Shown: positions 5,430 to 23,827 of the stretch, one piece after another
How positions within the stretch are numbered: the stretch's first letter is position 1
Layout of the letters: each line of letters opens with the position of its first letter
Position numbers and translations under genes: made by a program
Origin: Minisyncoccota bacterium
GTDB lineage: Bacteria; Patescibacteriota; Minisyncoccia; Phycocordibacterales; GCA-2747955
Reading direction: 5' to 3'
DNA length: 28,775 bases
NCBI GenBank assembly: GCA_938010795.1
Contig: CALLVB010000079.1
Coordinates: 1-28,775 of the forward strand
The notes under the pieces: generated by a model
The model's database searches: none
Told to the model about the DNA's origin: nothing
Seen by the model: only the letters and a program-made list of their open reading frames with translations

Positions 5430-6242
5430 ATGAAGTACCTGTTGTTACCCATTATATTTTTATTTTCAGCTAGTTTTGCAGCAGCGTGTTCGTTTACCCC
5501 AGATGCAGATAGAATGCAATCAGCAGAAGATAACGTCTCAAAATACCAGTATGTATTTGTAGGGAAGGTGCTTGAAAAAAGAGAACTAGAAGATTTTTCT
5601 GGCACAGAATATATTTTTGAAGTAGATAATTTTCATAAAGGTACTATTTACGAGTTTATCGATAGGTTTGACCATCGTCGACATACAGTCACTTCTCCTG
5701 GTCACTCATGTGGGTCATTTTTTGAGGTAGGGACAGTGGGTGTGTTTTTTACAAATGATCCATTTATGATTGATGAATCAAACCCGCAATACTTTTTTAA
5801 TTCAGTTGAAGAAGCAAAGGAGAAAGCCGATTCTCTTTTTAGTACCACTGTTGAACCAGTTGTAAAACCGGTAGGATGCACCAAAGAATATAAACCTGTT
5901 TGTGGAGAGATTGAAGTACAATGCGTCCAAGCTCCGTGCCCACCAATTCGGCAGACCTACTCAAATACTTGTGTTATGGATGCTGACGGTGCAACACTAG
6001 TACATCTAGGAGGGTGTGAAGTAGAGCCTAAACCTACCATTAAAGAGCAGGTAGAAGAGATTCAAGAGACAACCAATTCATTTACGAGTCCAACCGAAGG
6101 ACCACTTGTTGGTTTTGTGGAACCAACAAGTCCGCCACCAACCAAAGAGGAGCCATCAAAGGCAGAAAATCGTTCAAAAATCCTTAGTTTTTTCGACTGG
6201 TGGACTGCACAAGTACGTGGATTATTCTCTTGGCTTTTTTAA
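5430..6242 (+). CDS. Secreted protein with TIMP/NTR-like N-terminal domain and Kazal-type protease inhibitor domain
   Basis: Signal peptide ending AAA then Cys20; VFVGKV, F.V..F.KG, SCG..F..G; Kazal CTKEYKPVCG...TYSNTC...GGC at 5877-6017; P/T/E-rich tail. Confidence 0.75.
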   Translation: MKYLLLPIIFLFSASFAAACSFTPDADRMQSAEDNVSKYQYVFVGKVLEKRELEDFSGTEYIFEVDNFHKGTIYEFIDRFDHRRHTVTSPGHSCGSFFEVGTVGVFFTNDPFMIDESNPQYFFNSVEEAKEKADSLFSTTVEPVVKPVGCTKEYKPVCGEIEVQCVQAPCPPIRQTYSNTCVMDADGATLVHLGGCEVEPKPTIKEQVEEIQETTNSFTSPTEGPLVGFVEPTSPPPTKEEPSKAENRSKILSFFDWWTAQVRGLFSWLF

Positions 6243-6265: not shown

Positions 6266-6601
6266 ATGAAAAAAGTAATTTTCCTATCACTATTTTTTAT
6301 TGCTACACCAGTCTTTGGGCAGGTTATTTCACTAGATGAAAATCTGGTAAATAAAGAACCAACAGTTAAGGTTGAGGCGGCTCCAGTTGCAACAACTACC
6401 CTGACAGATCCGGTATCAACTACTACAGAGATTACCGAGACTATTGAAATTGTTCCAGGAGGGCTTAGCCTTAAACTTTCAACAACAGTTCCAGTAAATG
6501 CACATCCAGCAACGACTACTCAAGAATTAGTTGACGACGGTCTATTCGATCTTATCTACACAGGATTCGAAGAATTTGTATTTAAAGTATTTGGTATCTA
6601 G
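6266..6601 (+). CDS. Hypothetical exported Thr/Val-rich protein
   Basis: MKK-type signal peptide, Thr-rich low-complexity core, TATAAT 8 nt upstream, terminator downstream. Confidence 0.7.
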   Translation: MKKVIFLSLFFIATPVFGQVISLDENLVNKEPTVKVEAAPVATTTLTDPVSTTTEITETIEIVPGGLSLKLSTTVPVNAHPATTTQELVDDGLFDLIYTGFEEFVFKVFGI

Positions 6602-6623
6602 TTAATGTATATAAACAAAAGTT

Positions 6624-6645
6624 ACGACCAGAAGGTCGTTTTTTT
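6624..6645 (+). terminator. Intrinsic terminator
   Basis: ACGACC-AGAA-GGTCGT followed by T6. Confidence 0.7.
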
Positions 6646-6659
6646 GTTATACTTTTTTT

Positions 6660-7337
6660 ATGAGAATATACCCATCTGTTTTAGAGCAAACGCGTACTGC
6701 CATTGAAGACAAGATTTCCAGAGTACCTACGCAAATTAAAGAAGTGCAGATAGACATTTGTGATGGAGTGTTTGTTCCATCAAAAACGTACGGTTCATCT
6801 GGTACATTACGCTCACTTAAGTCTATAAATAGAATGACCAAAGGTAGAGAGCTGGAGTTAGACCTTATGGTGGATCTACAGAAAGCTGGGCGACGAAAAC
6901 GATTTCTCTCACACATCAAAGCCATTCATCCAGAGAGAATTATTATTCACTTTGGAACAACTGATAATTGGGGGTCTGTATTCACCCGGCTTACTCGCAG
7001 AGGGAAGATTGAGATGGAGGTAGGTCTGGGAATTCACCTATCACATACAAATCAAGATCTGTATGATTTGTTAGATAACTATCCATTTTCATTCATTCAA
7101 ATAATGGGGATCGAAAACGTTGGGTACTCAGGACAGGAATTTTCAAAAAAGACATACACCAAGATAAAAACATTTAGAAAACGATATCCAAACATACCAA
7201 TCTCTATTGACGGAGGAGTTAAAGTTGCAAATGCCGAAAAACTTAAGAACGCAGGCGCTACTAGAATCTGTCCTAATTCTGGTTTATTTAAGACTGTAGA
7301 TATTAAAAAAACCTACAAAGAATTTACAGAAATTTAA
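6660..7337 (+). CDS. rpe: Ribulose-phosphate 3-epimerase family protein (divergent metal ligands)
   Basis: QIDICDGVFVP, LDLMV, GYSGQEF, ISIDGGV; 225 aa; transketolase genes nearby. Confidence 0.85.
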   Translation: MRIYPSVLEQTRTAIEDKISRVPTQIKEVQIDICDGVFVPSKTYGSSGTLRSLKSINRMTKGRELELDLMVDLQKAGRRKRFLSHIKAIHPERIIIHFGTTDNWGSVFTRLTRRGKIEMEVGLGIHLSHTNQDLYDLLDNYPFSFIQIMGIENVGYSGQEFSKKTYTKIKTFRKRYPNIPISIDGGVKVANAEKLKNAGATRICPNSGLFKTVDIKKTYKEFTEI

Positions 7338-7395
7338 TATACAAATTTATAGACATACTCGTAGGAACGTCATGACACATAAGTCAGGTCTTGGT

Positions 7396-7429
7396 AATAA
7401 AAAACTGGCACATTCGAGATGCGCCAGTT
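7396..7429 (-). terminator. Intrinsic terminator of the 7449-7601 small ORF
   Basis: AACTGGC-A-CAT-tcgag-ATG-C-GCCAGTT hairpin; T-run follows on the minus strand. Confidence 0.65.
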
Positions 7430-7448
7430 GGTTGAGAACTATATGAGA

Positions 7449-7601
7449 CTATTCCTCATCTTTTTTTGTTGGGATTACTGGTGCTCGTTTTGCTCTTTGT
7501 ATTTCAGGTTGAATTTTAATCCATTCATGTATCAGGTGATGAATACCACTCAATACAATCAAACCTCCAATTACACAGATTATTATAGTGCCTTGTTCCA
7601 C
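7449..7601 (-). CDS. Unannotated 50-aa single-pass membrane microprotein
   Basis: SD AAGGAGG (7611-7617), 9 nt, GTG; MEQGTIIICVIGGLIVLSGIHHLIHEWIKIQPEIQRAKRAPVIPTKKDEE; own terminator; not in the ORF track. Confidence 0.7.
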   Translation of the reverse strand: MEQGTIIICVIGGLIVLSGIHHLIHEWIKIQPEIQRAKRAPVIPTKKDEE

Positions 7602-7686
7602 GATTAGCTTCCTCCTTAGTGATTGTAATCAGAGATAACTATCGCACACATATATAACTTTGACAAGCAATCTATTAAAAAAACGA

Positions 7687-7715
7687 TTGACAATTACTCT
7701 CATAGAATGTATTGT
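7687..7715 (+). promoter_or_regulatory. Sigma70-type promoter of the parB-like/ctrA-like operon
   Basis: TTGACA (7687-7692), 17 nt, TATTGT (7710-7715); SD AAGGAG at 7752-7757. Confidence 0.55.
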
Positions 7716-7765
7716 TATCTTTGCTGTACATTAACAAATCAAATTTTAAACAAGGAGTGAATATC

Positions 7766-8692
7766 ATGCCCAGCAACGCAACAGGGACACCGCTCCCCAT
7801 TAAATTGTCTAACTTACGTAAGTTTGAAGGACAACCTCGTCGACACTTTAGCGCGACAAGCATTGCTTCTCTCGCTGCATCAATTAAAGAAGAAGGACAA
7901 GAGACACCAGTGAGTGTTGTTATGTCTAAAACAGAACCGGGCACTTTTGTGCTCATTGATGGTGAAAGACGGATGAGGGCTTTTCAGCTCATTGCTGAAG
8001 ATACAAATACAGATCCAATAATATTGGCATTTGTTGACGTCGTCAAGGATCTTGAAGACCACTTCAGGAAATCAACGATTGCAAATTTGCACAGAGAAGA
8101 TATGCCTCCTCTTGATACTGGTGCCGCTTTGGCCCGTCTCAAGAAGACTAAGACTCTCGAGCAACTTGCCGACATGACAGGTAAATCTGTAACCTACGTT
8201 AAGAACTACATCTCTCTTGAAGCCCTCCCTGAGGAAGTTAAAGATATGATGAGCCCTGACCGTTCAAAAGAAAATCGTTTAAATGTTTCTCAGGCTATTG
8301 AAATCGCGCGCGTGCCCAATAAGGTATTGCAGATAGATTTAGCAAAAGAGTCTCTCGAAAGAGGGCTTGGTATGATGGAAACACGTAATCTTGCCGTCTT
8401 CAAATCGAGCAGTCGTGGCTATGTCCTTAAGGGGATTAAGCAACGGAATACTCGTGATGATTATCGTGTGATTGCTGGTTTGCCAGGACGCATTGAAAAA
8501 ACGCTGAGACGCGTTGATGAGATGTATATCGATGATATTTTCTTTGATCGAGATGATGAAGTGGGTGATCGAGCCAAAATGGCAAAACGTTATGGCTCAA
8601 TGATTGAACACCTTCAAAAAATCAAAGATAAAATCGAGACTCCTCGAGAGACTGCCGGAGACAGACCGAATCTGTCGATTGTATCTAATTAG
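7766..8692 (+). CDS. ParB/RepB/Spo0J family protein (orphan, no parA in the window)
   Basis: GQPRRHF, SIKEEGQETPV, IDGERRMRA (GxxRxxA), ANLHREDMPPLD, HTH TLEQLADMTGKSVTYV; start moved to ATG 7766 behind SD AAGGAG. Confidence 0.9.
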   Translation: MPSNATGTPLPIKLSNLRKFEGQPRRHFSATSIASLAASIKEEGQETPVSVVMSKTEPGTFVLIDGERRMRAFQLIAEDTNTDPIILAFVDVVKDLEDHFRKSTIANLHREDMPPLDTGAALARLKKTKTLEQLADMTGKSVTYVKNYISLEALPEEVKDMMSPDRSKENRLNVSQAIEIARVPNKVLQIDLAKESLERGLGMMETRNLAVFKSSSRGYVLKGIKQRNTRDDYRVIAGLPGRIEKTLRRVDEMYIDDIFFDRDDEVGDRAKMAKRYGSMIEHLQKIKDKIETPRETAGDRPNLSIVSN

Positions 8693-8704
8693 ATTGGAGG
8701 ACGT

Positions 8705-9427
8705 ATGCTCGTCTTACACCACGGTCTGGATAAGACCACCAAAGCATTTCTTGAATCTTTTGGAATGCAATTAATGCTCATCGAAGAAATTGAATCACTT
8801 GATGATGTTTCCGAATGGGTTAAGGCAACAACAGGTCCCGATGTGGTTCTGTTGGATATTGATGATCAACGTATAGGTATCTATGCACCGAGATTCCTTC
8901 GTTCTGAAGGGGTTAGTGTAAAAGTTGTTGGTTATACCAAGAACCCGGATTACCTCTCTGCATGGTCAGAAAGTCGCGCTCTATTTCTTGAGAACGGGGG
9001 AGACGATTTTCTTCGTGCCCCCTTAAATCCTCGTGAATTATCAGCAACAATTTCTGCTGTTTCTCGGCGTTCAACCGGACGTATGCTTGACGTGTTAAAA
9101 CACGTGGTGCATACAAATGGTCAAGATTCTATTCTCAAGATTCATCTTGGGATTAATCGCGTCACGGTCAATGATGCGCCAGTCGCTATGACAAACAAAG
9201 AGTTTGCCATGCTGCGCATGCTTGCTGAGCGTTCAGGAACTGTTGTTACTAAAGAACAGTTTCTCAACGGCATGTATGATGCTTTGGATGAAGAACCAGA
9301 GATTAAGATCCTAGATGTTTTCGTGTGTAAACTGAGAAAGAAACTCGGTCCAGCAGGTGCAGCTATAGAGACTGTATGGGGTAGAGGATATATGCTCACT
9401 AGTAAGAGCATTAAGTCTGCTGCATAA
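8705..9427 (+). CDS. ctrA: CtrA-like OmpR-family response regulator with degenerate receiver domain
   Basis: C-terminal [42 protein letters not shown] matches recalled alphaproteobacterial CtrA ([41 protein letters not shown]); VSRRSTG linker; ends in AA; SD GGAGG 8696-8700. Confidence 0.85.
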   Translation: [240 protein letters not shown]

Positions 9428-9449
9428 AAGATTAAAATTGATTTGTAGG

Positions 9450-9471
9450 AGCCCCTTTTGTAGGGGCTTTT
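9450..9471 (+). terminator. Intrinsic terminator after the ctrA-like gene
   Basis: AGCCCCT-TTTGT-AGGGGCT followed by TTT. Confidence 0.75.
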
Positions 9472-9497
9472 ACTTATCTATATAATTATTGTATAGT
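9469..9497 (+). promoter_or_regulatory. Sigma70-type promoter of the sciP-like gene
   Basis: TTTACT (9469-9474), 17 nt, TATAGT (9492-9497); SD GGAG at 9513-9516. Confidence 0.55.
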
Positions 9498-9524
9498 ATA
9501 AACAGTACATTTGGAGATTTTATT

Positions 9525-9779
9525 ATGGAACGTGCATTTTTTTATGACCTGCATGGTAATGTCATCGTGTCTGAGAATGATCTGCCTGCTGTTGATTGTC
9601 GTTGGACAGAGAACCGTAAGTTCATAGTCATTAAGGGAGTCGCTATAGGTATCTTTTCTCGTGAGTTGGTGCTTGAGCGTTATGGTATGACTGAGACCGA
9701 ATTAGATTCATGGACAGACAGGATGGACCGCCTTGGTCAAGATGGTTTAAAAACTACTCGAATTCGATCAATAAGATGA
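9525..9779 (+). CDS. sciP: SciP-like (DUF1153) small CtrA-inhibitory protein homolog, 84 aa
   Basis: DLPAVDCRWTENRK..VI..V..GI.S.E....RYGMTETELDSW.....RLGQDGLKTTRI follows the recalled DUF1153/SciP pattern DLPP..T.RW...RKA.VV..V.GGLLS..EA..RY.L..EE...W......G..GLR.TRI; start moved to ATG 9525. Confidence 0.85.
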   Translation: MERAFFYDLHGNVIVSENDLPAVDCRWTENRKFIVIKGVAIGIFSRELVLERYGMTETELDSWTDRMDRLGQDGLKTTRIRSIR

Positions 9780-9808
9780 AAGATTCGCCATAACTGGCGG
9801 ATCTTTTT
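9780..9808 (+). terminator. Intrinsic terminator after the sciP-like gene
   Basis: AAGATTCGCCA-TAAC-TGGCGGATCTT followed by TTT. Confidence 0.8.
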
Positions 9809-9918
9809 AGTTATGTGGCTCAGTATTTATTTTTTAAATTTTAAGCGTGTCTATGTGAACATAGATATATACAAAACAACTTTAATCTACGTCGTCCATG
9901 CTTTATACTACGTAGTAT

Positions 9919-10755
9919 ATGAGTATTACCCCAGAACAAGTTACAGAACTCGAGAAGAAAGCTAATGATATTAGGATTGATATTGTAAAGTCTCTTGCTA
10001 AGGCAGGAACAGGGCATACAGCAGGACCCCTAGATATGGCTGACGTATTCACTACACTCTACTTTTATTCTATGCGACATAATCCCAAGAAACCAGATTG
10101 GGAGGGAAGAGACCGTCTCGTGCTTTCTAATGGACACATTTGTCCAGTACTGTATGTCACAATGGCGCACGCAGGATACTTTGCTGCGTCACAACTAGAC
10201 ACCCTTAGGGTATTTGGATCGTCACTTCAGGGTCATCCACATAGGGAGTATCTTCCAGGAATTGAGACATCATCAGGACCGCTGGGATCAGGACTTTCAC
10301 AGGCTGTCGGAATGGCACTGGCAGACAGGATCGATAATGGTAAGACATCTGGAAAGTTTTTTTACTGTCTCATGGGAGATGGAGAGACTAATGAAGGACA
10401 AATTTGGGAAGCTGCAATGATGGCGGGTAAAGAACAACTCGGAAATCTTATTTGTGTAGTAGACAGAAACAACATTCAAATTGATGGATTTACAGAAGAC
10501 ATTATGCCACTAGAGCCATACGCGGATAAATGGGAGGCTTTTGGATTTCACGTAATCTCAATTGATGGACATAATATCGAAGAGATCGCAGATGCTATCG
10601 ATCAAGGTAAGGCAGTGTTTGAAAAACCAACGATGATTATCGCTAGAACCATTTCATCAAAAGGAGTACCAGCATGGGAACGAGATTTCCACTGGCACGG
10701 AAAACCACCCAAGGATGACGAACTACAAGTCGCACTTGATGCACTTAAAAAATAA
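9919..10755 (+). CDS. tkt: Transketolase, N-terminal (TPP-binding) subunit
   Basis: GTGHTAG, RDRLVLSNGH, LQGHP, SSGPLGSGLS, GDGETNEG..WEA...NN TPP motif, HWHG. Confidence 0.95.
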   Translation: MSITPEQVTELEKKANDIRIDIVKSLAKAGTGHTAGPLDMADVFTTLYFYSMRHNPKKPDWEGRDRLVLSNGHICPVLYVTMAHAGYFAASQLDTLRVFGSSLQGHPHREYLPGIETSSGPLGSGLSQAVGMALADRIDNGKTSGKFFYCLMGDGETNEGQIWEAAMMAGKEQLGNLICVVDRNNIQIDGFTEDIMPLEPYADKWEAFGFHVISIDGHNIEEIADAIDQGKAVFEKPTMIIARTISSKGVPAWERDFHWHGKPPKDDELQVALDALKK

Positions 10756-10759
10756 GCAT

Positions 10760-10788
10760 AAAAAAGACGGACCTCAATCGGTCCATCT
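10760..10788 (-). terminator. Intrinsic terminator of the 10815-10970 small ORF
   Basis: Minus strand AGATGGACC-gattga-GGTCCGTCT followed by a T-run. Confidence 0.65.
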
Positions 10789-10814
10789 GTAAGGAATAGA
10801 ATATCTATTCCTAG

Positions 10815-10970
10815 TTATTGCTGTAATTCATTGCACGGTCCAAGGATCGTATCTTCAGGTTCAGGTATTTTCACTCCTTCCATCGATACTCCTGAGGGCG
10901 CATGCAGAGCAGGTTTATCACCCGTTAATTCTTTATTTGTAGCAGGGCTAACATCTTTTGCTTTTCCCAT
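10815..10970 (-). CDS. Unannotated 51-aa hydrophilic microprotein
   Basis: MGKAKDVSPATNKELTGDKPALHAPSGVSMEGVKIPEPEDTILGPCNELQQ; SD GGAG (10977-10980); promoter and terminator flank it; not in the ORF track. Confidence 0.65.
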   Translation of the reverse strand: MGKAKDVSPATNKELTGDKPALHAPSGVSMEGVKIPEPEDTILGPCNELQQ

Positions 10971-10999
10971 AAGGCACTCCATTGGTTGATTGGGCTTTT

Positions 11000-11028
11000 A
11001 TAATACCGATATACAGTTTATCAGTCAA
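11000..11028 (-). promoter_or_regulatory. Sigma70-type promoter of the 10815-10970 ORF
   Basis: Minus strand TTGACT (11028-11023), 17 nt, TATTAT (11005-11000). Confidence 0.65.
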
Positions 11029-11029
11029 G

Positions 11030-11614
11030 TTATTTTCTTAGAATCCCAGCTGAGAGTACAAAAAGAGGAATAGATTCAGTGTCTTCTTTTTTTAATTTCT
11101 TAATTTTTCTCATTTCCACAAGCACTAACTCACCACTAAAGTTAATGGGATAGGGTGCATACACCCAAATAGATCCCTCAATAGGGCTCGCCTCAGTCTC
11201 ATGATGACCAGGGTCTTCTTCTCCGTTCAAGATCTCGGTTCCTTCATCTGTAATAAAGCCAAGTTTATAAATTCCATCATCAACCTTATATAAAACAGGA
11301 TTATGGAACGCTTTGTGTACCTGGTCAGAGAGCACATCAAAACTTGTGATGAGTTTTGCTATATACCCAAGGAATGTCTTCTTTTCAGCATATGTGTGGA
11401 GGCGTTTTTTGAGTCGTTTACGTAAGAATTTTCGTACTCCATATCCAAGAATAAAGATAAGTACGCAGGCAATAGGAAACGCTATAAGTAAGGGGAGTTC
11501 AATAAAGTTTGTTACAAACCATGAGATACCTTTGATTAACTGGATAACAATAAAAACAGGAATCAAGAAAAGTAATCCACTGACAAAGTAACTGATAATT
11601 TTTTTTGTATTCAT
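11030..11614 (-). CDS. DUF502-family membrane protein
   Basis: YFVSGLLFLIP, ILG, Y..GFIT, VYAPYPINFSG...V, SAG; real start is ATG at 11614 (TGGTATACT 6 nt upstream). The track's upstream extension overlaps tkt antisense. Confidence 0.8.
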   Translation of the reverse strand: MNTKKIISYFVSGLLFLIPVFIVIQLIKGISWFVTNFIELPLLIAFPIACVLIFILGYGVRKFLRKRLKKRLHTYAEKKTFLGYIAKLITSFDVLSDQVHKAFHNPVLYKVDDGIYKLGFITDEGTEILNGEEDPGHHETEASPIEGSIWVYAPYPINFSGELVLVEMRKIKKLKKEDTESIPLFVLSAGILRK

Positions 11615-22735: not shown

Positions 22736-23680
22736 TTAAGCTGTCTTACTTGTCTCACCAAACGAATTAGTACGAGGAACAATAGAGAGAGCAACTCGAG
22801 GTTTCTCTGTCTGTTGGTCATCGTTTGTGAGGTTAAGAAGAGGTTTTGATTTACTGACTTTAACCGTTACCTGTTCAGTATTGTTTTGCTCGAGGCGGTT
22901 TTGTTCATGATATGCCTCGATCTTTGCACCACTTTTCTTGAGCATGACGTGCCGATCAGCTTTTCTAAGCGTACGCTTACAAGCAATTGAATCTGCAAAC
23001 CCGAATGAGCCAAGGACACGCTGTCTTTGAGGGTTAGATAATTCACCAGAACGTAAGAGTTTTGCTCCCACATATGTTTTGATATCACCAAACCCGGCAG
23101 CATGTGCCACATCAAGAACCCAGAAACATTCATCTAGAGATGCATGTTTCGCTATTTGAGCCAAAGCAGCGCGTTGCTGCAATCTACAATCAGTCGACAT
23201 AAAGATAGTCCGACGATCATTTTGGGTTTTTACACCCATCAGTGCAGTCTTTGGAACTGCAGAGCCACCTAAGGAAGTAATGAAATCTTCATATGTGACA
23301 AATCGACTCGTATTAGGACCCATCGACAAGTTGTGCATAAGAACCGATTCTTCAGGTATATCTTTTGAGCTAAGCTTAAAGGTTTTTTCAGATTCTTCAA
23401 GAAAAGAGGGGACACCTGTTGATGGTTGACGTTTTGAGACGCCATGTAGCCATTCTTTCGCATCATCCTCATCAGCTTTTTTTTGTGCTGTGCGCACTTT
23501 GAGATGCTCGGAAATACGAGCACGTGTCCGCAGAACTTTTATGTACTCCAAAGGAGCACTAAAGAACGAAGGAAGTGGATGTTCACGATCTGCAAGTTTA
23601 GCAAACGCTTGTTGTGTATAGTAGCCCTTTGCTGCGTATTCGTGATTAATTCCAGTAATAGTAAGCATGAAATAAGCCAT
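22736..23680 (-). CDS. Hypothetical orphan protein, 314 aa
   Basis: Long ORF with own promoter (TTGACG-16-TAAAAT), SD GGAG and terminator; no recognisable family motif. Confidence 0.75.
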   Translation of the reverse strand: MAYFMLTITGINHEYAAKGYYTQQAFAKLADREHPLPSFFSAPLEYIKVLRTRARISEHLKVRTAQKKADEDDAKEWLHGVSKRQPSTGVPSFLEESEKTFKLSSKDIPEESVLMHNLSMGPNTSRFVTYEDFITSLGGSAVPKTALMGVKTQNDRRTIFMSTDCRLQQRAALAQIAKHASLDECFWVLDVAHAAGFGDIKTYVGAKLLRSGELSNPQRQRVLGSFGFADSIACKRTLRKADRHVMLKKSGAKIEAYHEQNRLEQNNTEQVTVKVSKSKPLLNLTNDDQQTEKPRVALSIVPRTNSFGETSKTA

Positions 23681-23775: not shown

Positions 23776-23803
23776 AAAACAAAAGGCGTACGCCTTTTGT
23801 TTT
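23776..23803. repeat. Perfect 28-bp palindrome, probably acting as terminator of the 23828-24493 gene
   Basis: AAAACAAAAGGCGTACGCCTTTTGTTTT is its own reverse complement. Confidence 0.75.
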
Positions 23804-23827
23804 TAATTATTCATTAATAAATAATGA

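Follow-up and report, generated by a model that had tools for sequence, protein, structure and literature searches.

The stretch of DNA considered here, referred to as the window, is the 28,775-nucleotide (nt) contig CALLVB010000079.1 of a Minisyncoccota bacterium (GenBank assembly GCA_938010795.1), and the subject of this article is a cassette of three small genes at positions 7,766 to 9,779, which encode a ParB-family protein, a CtrA-type regulator, and a SciP-like protein. CtrA and SciP are classically regarded as hallmarks of the Alphaproteobacteria. A first-pass annotation made from the sequence alone had placed such a regulator pair in a small genome of apparent Patescibacteria affiliation, which agrees with the size of the source genome (G000; 867 kb in 110 contigs, 89% complete, 0.8% contamination, a metagenome assembly at about 6-8x coverage) and with the labels of the named cassette carriers, every one of which is assigned to the Patescibacteria. 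No paper in the literature searched describes CtrA or SciP in this group, in keeping with the novelty suggested at that stage. The principal features, with lengths in amino acids (aa) and with the evidence in brackets (AF2, AlphaFold2 model), are as follows.

7338..9898, no strand assigned: accessory segment between rpe and transketolase, absent from the same-genus genome G414 (blastn)
7766..8692, plus strand: orphan ParB-family gene, 308 aa (Pfam, NCBIfam, alignment A4, AF2, Foldseek)
8705..9427, plus strand: gene for the CtrA-type regulator, designated CtrAψ, 240 aa, C-terminus -SAA (Pfam, NCBIfam, alignment, AF2, Foldseek)
9525..9779, plus strand: SciP-like gene, 84 aa, DUF1153 (Pfam, NCBIfam, alignment A3; GGAG before the ATG at 9525)

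The three open reading frames (ORFs; 7766-8692, 8705-9427, and 9525-9779) lie on the plus strand with intact frames, and the 12-nt gap between parB and ctrAψ includes the sequence GGAGG. The cassette is flanked upstream by rpe (6660-7337) and downstream by the N-terminal half of a split transketolase gene (9919-10755), an arrangement that had been read correctly from the outset, together with the ribosome-binding sites. The remaining genes of the window are of the housekeeping type, including HisRS, TyrRS, MGMT, SOD, UvrA, GAPDH, and PilM, and no integrase, transposase, phage, or kinase gene occurs in the rest of the window, as had been stated before.

The DNA-binding half of the central protein resembles that of CtrA. 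Pfam assigns Trans_reg_C with 64.7 bits, while the Response_reg score of 18.8 bits stays under the cut-off of 30.2. Among the NCBIfam models, CtrA (NF045991) is the best-scoring family, reaching 127.4 bits over residues 95-232 only, which places it 55 bits ahead of the next model, RpaB (72 bits); the score is nevertheless under the equivalog cut-off of 350 bits, whereas the true CtrAs P0041 and P0256 reach 415 and 402 bits. In the alignment, the recognition helix, which starts KI(I/L), and the wing IETVWGRGY match those of CtrA. The phylogeny inferred with IQ-TREE separates the CtrA-like proteins from OmpR-type regulators of Staphylococcus, Listeria, and E. coli with a Shimodaira-Hasegawa approximate likelihood ratio test (SH-aLRT) value of 100, and it contains a pseudo-receiver clade of 37 rows with 99% support. 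The affinity of the window regulator is thus with CtrA, as opposed to generic OmpR proteins, which upholds the initial assignment.

The first-pass annotation had not reported the degenerate state of the receiver domain, the presence of a second, canonical ctrA in the genome, or the accessory and phage-linked nature of the cassette. In the receiver, the acid pocket E-D-D is replaced by G-L-D in the window protein and by G-(L/V)-D across the family, and the canonical Lys (...TKPF) is replaced by Arg (...LRAP...), while the phospho-acceptor column holds D in the window protein and D, N, or H across the family. The pseudo-receiver proteins share a conserved, family-specific motif that ends P.NPREL. 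The AF2 model of CtrAψ (predicted local distance difference test, pLDDT, 89) has a complete (βα)5 receiver fold followed by a winged helix, and the Foldseek search matched it to full-length OmpR/PhoB regulators, including the kinase-independent HP1043, CosR, GlnR, and RitR. CtrAψ is a CtrA-type paralog with a degenerate receiver, and its activity is probably independent of phosphorylation.

Approximately 40 full-length homologs of CtrAψ were retrieved, one of them named Candidatus Paceibacterota, and Pfam recognizes only the C-terminal domain of these proteins; the next-best matches after them are rickettsial CtrAs, with 52% identity over the DNA-binding domain. An exhaustive profile search yielded 29 cluster representatives at E<=1e-30, and of the 150 best representatives, about 60 fall within the pseudo-receiver clade of the tree. 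The last residue is Ala in 41 of 64 clade members (18 ending in AA, 11 in VA), compared with an Ala frequency of 7.4%. In four metagenomic representatives within the clade (P0136, P0145, P0155, and P0167), the recognition helix is not of the CtrA type but resembles that of PhoB/OmpR (RTIDSHIKRLRKK), and the best NCBIfam match of P0136 is PhoB; the clade therefore also yielded a different DNA specificity, or output domains were swapped.

SciP is known to inhibit promoters that CtrA activates (PMC6847485). The product of 9525-9779 matches DUF1153 (PF06627) with 65.1 bits against a gathering score of 23.5, as had been expected, and it is encoded by the only DUF1153 gene of the genome. Its sole NCBIfam match is the SciP model (NF051866), with 66.7 bits, which does not reach the equivalog cut-off of 100. 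The 12 SciP-like proteins of the cassettes, that of the window included, have the SciP model as their only family match (best E-value 4e-28). In alignment A3, residues R26, W27, E59, and W63 are invariant and K32 is nearly so, and the motif R-W-x-x-x-R/K-K is conserved with the five-residue spacing of SciP, position 31 being R or K. Caulobacter SciP binds CtrA directly through the Arg residues R35 and R40, which presumably correspond to positions 26 and 31. Word-based searches for homologs returned few Patescibacteria proteins and no alphaproteobacterial ones.

The first gene of the cassette belongs to the ParB family, with scores of 37.6 bits for ParB_N (PF02195), 36.6 bits for HTH_ParB (PF17762), and 87.2 for TIGR00180 (cut-off 58.45). 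Across 17 cassette ParBs (alignment A4), the motifs QPR and GERRxRA, the latter reading GERRMRA in the window protein, are invariant, so that binding of cytidine triphosphate (CTP) has probably been kept. The Glu of the ParB box III motif ENLQRE is required for CTP hydrolysis. In the window protein, box III reads ANLHRE, and A, D, or H stands at the Glu position across the cassette ParBs, while the canonical ParB of the same genome, a separate gene on contig C38 (107 bits), has ENLQRE. The C-terminal region of the cassette proteins is a conserved three-helix segment of their own that gives no alignment to canonical ParB, and the AF2 model (pLDDT 83.5) finds its best Foldseek matches in CTP-bound ParB, Noc, and KorB, which cover about the first 205-240 residues. 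By these features, the cassette ParBs constitute a subfamily of their own. No ParA-type family is present among the recorded Pfam families of called genes at six cassette loci, where parS sites were not searched for.

The distribution of the cassette was assessed from 18 distinct loci outside the window. A ParB gene lies directly upstream of the CtrAψ gene in 17 of them, locus L028 being the exception, and a SciP-like gene adjoins in 11, whereas the chromosomal neighbors vary from locus to locus and include genes of ribosomal proteins, uvrC-ddl, ftsZ, and ribonucleotide reductase. A scan of 185,579 species genomes with the pattern FLENGGDD identified 13 carriers, all labelled Patescibacteria (Paceibacterota, Kaiserbacteria, Parcubacteria, Minisyncoccia, and 'Saccharibacteria'). 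Among 400 sampled genomes of the phylum, DUF1153 was found at cut-off in none (one weak match of 18.9 bits) and canonical CtrA in none. CtrAψ is missing from all 30 closest relatives, which include two genomes of the same genus and nine of the same family, one complete single-contig genome among them, and likewise from 40 relatives of G410, a carrier labelled Kaiserbacteria. As a separate observation, the cassette of the genome labelled Minisyncoccia is followed, 1.2 kb downstream, by a reverse-transcriptase (RVT_1) gene (L015/L021:7953-8954).

Comparison with the two congeners locates the boundaries of the segment. In G414 (tktN 91% identical at the amino acid level), about 50 nt separate the rpe stop codon from the tkt ATG, forming an empty site, and blastn aligns window positions 6531-7337 with L096 6265-5462 and positions 9899-10754 with L096 5432-4578. 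As rpe and tkt nearly abut there, the segment 7338-9898 is either an insertion in the window genome or a precise loss in G414. In G415 (93%), a different gene, encoding 319 aa and lacking any PADLOC or PHROG match, occupies the rpe/tkt spot (L097:1833-2792).

With a metagenome assembly of 110 contigs at about 6-8x, the possibility must be considered that alphaproteobacterial DNA was joined to, or binned with, a Patescibacteria genome. Independent Logan contigs from a marine metagenome run span positions 6868-8200 and 8202-10221 at an even depth of 6-7x and thereby bridge both junctions, so the continuity of the contig across the cassette, which the first-pass annotation had wanted verified, is established. 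Since the depth is even and the GC content is uniform across the window (38% for the genome), contamination and chimerism are excluded. The flanks share 91-93% protein identity with the congeners, and the cassette recurs in 13 Patescibacteria genomes that were assembled independently. Whereas the mean identity among alphaproteobacterial CtrAs is 74% (PMC9437464), the CtrAs of cassette genomes are only 36-56% identical to true CtrA. An artefact of assembly or binning has thus already been refuted and retains virtually no probability.

The same comparisons bear on the proposal that the cassette was an old, selected acquisition and an ancient, vertically inherited master switch of the cell cycle or of the free and attached life cycle of the symbiont, tied to the state of the chromosome through ParB. 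The intact reading frames and the expression signals are compatible with such a role, as is the diversity of the family within Patescibacteria, and the strong conservation of motifs at only about 40% protein identity indicates purifying selection. A perfect TTAA-N7-TTAA site at C31:6022 (L075), approximately 100 nt upstream of a gene for a 134-aa pilin-like protein with a type IV pilin N-methylation motif, may also be named on this side, although it is a lead only and not evidence. However, the cassette is missing from both same-genus genomes and from nine same-family genomes, including the complete single-contig one, and it occurs in only about 14 carrier species against 185,579 scanned and in none of the 400 sampled genomes of the phylum. 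The empty site of G414 largely refutes vertical inheritance for this lineage, where the different gene in G415 and the absence from 30 relatives also contradict an old acquisition. Congeners could not do without a regulator essential to the cell cycle, and the canonical chromosomal ParB is a separate gene. An ancient vertical switch is therefore considered improbable. As for the more general suggestion of a switch co-opted for the symbiont's own use, that part still stands as a possible role, while an essential function in the cell cycle is unlikely because congeners live without the cassette.

A second ctrA was found outside the window, on contig C68 (7464-8153; locus L079). It encodes a protein of 229 aa that scores 310.6 bits over the full length of the NCBIfam CtrA model, the next family reaching 151, which is below the cut-off of 350. 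The protein is 56% identical to one that passes the CtrA cut-off, has all four receiver residues, ends in -LAA, and falls among the true CtrAs in the IQ-TREE phylogeny. The gene follows secA, obg, uvrC, and ddl, and because synteny with the congeners stops right after ddl and the congeners lack any OmpR-type regulator, the canonical ctrA is likewise accessory. Canonical CtrA co-occurs with the cassette in 3 of 14 cassette-bearing species genomes. In two other carriers, a canonical ctrA and a sciP form a four-gene cluster with parB and ctrAψ: at L022, the order is sciP, ctrA, parB, and ctrAψ on one strand, and at L027, parB and ctrAψ are followed by a ctrA-sciP pair that is convergent to them. 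In the approximately unbiased (AU) test, a single Patescibacteria clade containing both paralogs was not rejected (p 0.58); one acquisition followed by duplication therefore accounts for the data as well as two acquisitions.

The signaling partners of CtrA, which the first-pass annotation had suggested looking for, were not detected. Neither CckA and ChpT nor any other histidine kinase or phosphorelay partner was found in this genome (89% complete), where the sole HATPase_c match is GyrB and a tblastn search with a related Patescibacteria kinase was empty. Only two receiver-domain proteins are encoded in the genome, both of the CtrA family.

Patescibacteria are often episymbionts, and the sample is marine, where Alphaproteobacteria are abundant; together with the unchanged CtrA recognition helix, this could suggest that the cassette proteins are secreted or injected effectors, or mimics, that act on the CtrA regulon of an alphaproteobacterial host, as the first-pass annotation had put forward. 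The proteins themselves, however, have the architecture of ordinary cytoplasmic regulators, with no signal peptide or hydrophobic N-terminus in any of the three translations (read by eye), and secretion or injection genes are not linked to the cassette. A canonical CtrA with a phosphorylatable receiver in the same genome makes sense only inside the cell, the cassette is also carried by phages, and the conservation is explicable without a canonical CtrA-box signature. A role as host effectors is accordingly very improbable.

Two phage contigs (MUNK22 scaffold_10 and Ga0376666_0000531) carry relatives of the cassette. The first (L014/L107) is 108 kb in length and encodes a portal protein (415 bits) and a head maturation protease (226 bits), along with an NAD-dependent DNA ligase, HNH endonucleases, a MazG-like pyrophosphatase, and dozens of small genes on the same strand; its ParB, CtrAψ, and SciP genes have the order and orientation seen in the window. 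Its CtrAψ is the most divergent full-length homolog, and it nests inside the chromosomal Patescibacteria clade. The second contig (L038) encodes a terminase, a portal protein (481 bits), a D5 primase, a DUF1153 protein, and a CtrA-like protein with a degenerate receiver, and its group branches as the sister of the pseudo-receiver clade (support 85). Short CtrA-like proteins also occur in cultured phages of Rhodobacterales, gp37 of Roseobacter phage RDJL Phi 1 being annotated 'ctrA', and phages have been reported to exploit CtrA boxes (PMC9437464).

These observations raise the alternative that the cassette is in essence phage cargo, that is, a set of CtrA and SciP mimics that evolved on phages to time phage expression or to control the host regulon, with the chromosomal copies captured or left behind and perhaps serving superinfection immunity or phage-host conflict. 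The occurrence of CtrAψ and SciP on two phage contigs, one with the full trio in the window order, agrees with this proposal, as do the sister position of the L038 group, the CtrA-like proteins of cultured Rhodobacterales phages, and the published use of CtrA boxes by phages. The patchy spread over single species and the variable insertion spot, at which a congener holds a different gene, are typical of accessory or conflict genes. Conversely, phage structural, integrase, and lysis genes are not found near any chromosomal copy, and a scan of IMG/VR with the pseudo-receiver patterns returned no match. The nesting of L014 within the chromosomal clade would fit capture from a host equally well, and canonical CtrA stands alongside the cassette in 3 of the 14 species genomes. 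The identity of the cassette as a defense system was also considered and rejected, as PADLOC gave no meaningful match, its PD-Lambda-5 matches of 14-19 bits being confined to the ParB N-domain. An origin purely as phage cargo is therefore regarded as rather unlikely.

At this locus, a known regulatory module occurs in a mobile and accessory form, with links to phages and in a phylum where it was not expected. It is probably best understood as a recurrent, horizontally mobile regulatory cassette that descends from the alphaproteobacterial CtrA-SciP switch and circulates among Patescibacteria and phages. In the source genome, it is probably an insert of recent date. Several findings weigh against this interpretation. 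The receiver is too diverged to be traced to that of CtrA, since a profile built from alignment A2 ranks the C68 CtrA receiver no higher than generic receivers. No integrase or repeat flags the insertion, and both phage contigs are metagenomic and without an assigned host. The role of the ParB-like protein is drawn solely from gene linkage and analogy, and as regards expression, the cassette is known here only from its genes. ClpX was not found in six cassette-bearing genomes, the source genome included, although ClpP is present; the degradation route of Caulobacter is therefore inapplicable, and the idea of a ClpXP degron was rejected. Finally, the first-pass annotation had proposed looking for an enrichment of CtrA boxes in promoters, and none was found: TTAA-N7-TTAA occurs 26 times genome-wide, compared with 12-57 times for other spacings, and 15 times in intergenic regions, compared with 4-17, both comparisons having low power at 38% GC. 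In the window and in 17 related loci, the regions preceding parB and ctrAψ contain no such site, and the box scans point to no target gene set.

Two observations were made in the course of these scans. A perfect intergenic TTAA-N7-TTAA site is located at 23803-23817 of the window, 123 nt upstream of an unannotated gene encoding 314 aa (22736-23680, minus strand). Five further sites resembling TTAA-N7-TTAA, in C48 and related copies, were considered as operators and rejected because they form part of roughly 40-bp inverted repeats (TTCCATTAATTACAATTTAAGCTTGTTAAGATAACCTT and its complement), which occur at C48:290-345, 520-580, and 1905-1960, with similar copies at C100:8008 and C107:20044. These repeats look like a small repeat element and not like regulator sites.

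Under the interpretation of a mobile regulatory cassette, CtrAψ would bind DNA resembling the CtrA box as a constitutive, phosphorylation-independent dimer and would activate or repress a few promoters, or compete with canonical CtrA there. The SciP-like protein may bind CtrAψ, CtrA, or both and stop activation, a mode of action known from SciP of Caulobacter. The ParB-like protein, in which the CTP motif is intact and the hydrolysis box altered, could load onto DNA as a clamp and act as a co-regulator in the manner of KorB with KorA, while the conserved -(A/V)A tail might target the regulators for degradation by a protease distinct from ClpXP. The likeliest candidates for regulation would be type IV pilus or competence genes, or phage or host promoters that set the timing of infection. 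A more specific proposal, which is offered tentatively and is not expected to hold in full, is that a self-contained, phosphorylation-independent CtrA/SciP switch, with a ParB CTP clamp as its KorB/KorA-like co-regulator, spreads among these ultra-small symbionts and their phages, and that host and phage copies compete at CtrA-type operators and so decide infection timing or immunity.

The closest known system is the CtrA-SciP pair of Alphaproteobacteria, exemplified by Caulobacter crescentus (NF045991, NF051866, PF06627). The cassette regulator shares with it the recognition helix, the wing, and a C-terminal Ala-Ala tail like that of Caulobacter CtrA, and no other family scores as high as CtrA; the small protein matches the SciP model alone, along almost all of its length, and the C68 protein is 56% identical to a true CtrA. 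The genes ctrA and sciP are neighbors in Rhodobacterales, as they are in the cassette. Unlike that system, the cassette lies outside Alphaproteobacteria, is accessory and mobile instead of core, and includes a ParB-family partner gene; the receiver in the window lacks the acid pocket and Lys, searches of the genome detected neither a kinase nor ClpX, TTAA-N7-TTAA shows no clear enrichment, and the scores stay under the equivalog cut-offs (127 and 310 against 350; 66.7 against 100).

Resemblance to other systems is confined to single components. The CtrA-like proteins of Rhodobacterales phages, gp37 of RDJL Phi 1 and gp58 of Rhodobacter phage RcSalem, are phage-borne, have a DNA-binding domain of the CtrA type (KIIDVFVCK.R.KL, ETVWG.GY), and lack a functional receiver. 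They are short, however (151 and 201 aa), and lack a domain with the receiver fold, whereas the cassette proteins keep the full fold and its motifs; the phage records annotate no SciP or ParB neighbor, although no family search was run on the neighboring genes. The atypical OmpR/PhoB regulators, namely Helicobacter HP1043/HsrA, Campylobacter CosR, actinobacterial GlnR, and Streptococcus RitR, are comparable in that they are orphans without a kinase that combine a full receiver fold lacking the phosphorylation pocket with a winged-helix output, and their structures (2hqr, 8uvx, 8hih, and 5u8m) are among the Foldseek matches of the CtrAψ model. They show no specific sequence kinship with it, and the cassette protein differs in having a CtrA-type DNA-binding domain and in belonging to a mobile three-gene cassette. 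The ParB-like protein can be compared with KorB-KorA of plasmid RK2, Noc, and VirB, in which a ParB-family CTP-binding N-domain and HTH stand beside small DNA-binding regulators without a ParA partner, and the KorB structures 8qa8 and 8qa9 are among the Foldseek matches of its model. Identity is approximately 25%, however, the C-terminal region of the cassette ParB differs, and Ala replaces Glu in box III; in comparison with KorB-KorA, a functional connection between ParB and CtrAψ is suggested by gene linkage only.

The occurrence of CtrA and SciP in Patescibacteria implies that the circuit is not bound to one class but can be transferred as a module, which phages carry as well. In the source genome, the module unites a canonical CtrA with a paralog that probably needs no kinase and with a ParB-family partner of its own. 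The regulation of Patescibacteria is almost uncharted, and three small proteins with a predictable DNA motif offer a tractable entry to it, while the phage biology of these bacteria gains a regulator set that can be tested. The cassette also represents a natural experiment in which a master regulator dependent on a phosphorelay was rewired after the loss of its kinase, phosphotransferase, and ClpXP protease.

Further features within the accessory segment, mainly putative expression signals, are listed below.

7449..7601, minus strand: putative ORF for a 50-aa hydrophobic peptide, divergent from parB (ORF list), with a terminator-like hairpin at 7429-7403 (scan)
7687..7715, plus strand: promoter-like TTGACA-17-TATTGT upstream of parB (consensus scan, 10/12 matches)
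9445..9473, plus strand: hairpin resembling an intrinsic terminator after ctrAψ (12-pair stem, 6 G-C pairs, T-rich tail)
9469..9497, plus strand: promoter-like TTTACT-17-TATAGT for sciP, overlapping the terminator tail (consensus scan, 9/12 matches)
9786..9799, plus strand: short G+C hairpin with a trailing run of T residues, downstream of sciP (CGCCATAACTGGCG GATCTTTTT; the terminator scan gave the same hairpin on the minus strand)

The terminators described in the first-pass annotation are present, the cassette stretch holding 7 terminator-like sites against 1.5 expected. Promoter-like sites likewise occur where they had been described, but their number is at chance level (8 against 7.2 expected from shuffled sequence), so that the site upstream of parB is weak when taken alone. 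The ORF at 7449-7601 shares 63% identity over 24 aa with a 49-aa ORF at the equivalent position upstream of parB in L006, the cassette most closely related to that of the window.

Two observations concern the wider surroundings of the cassette. The spacer between tktN and tktC (window 10756-11612) is about 860 nt long and contains a minus-strand reading frame; it measures about 350 nt in the congener G414, and the tktN-tktC gap is therefore a further variable spot. On the other side of the cassette, positions 5430-6242 encode a secreted-looking protein of 270 aa with a weak Kazal-type match (21 bits).

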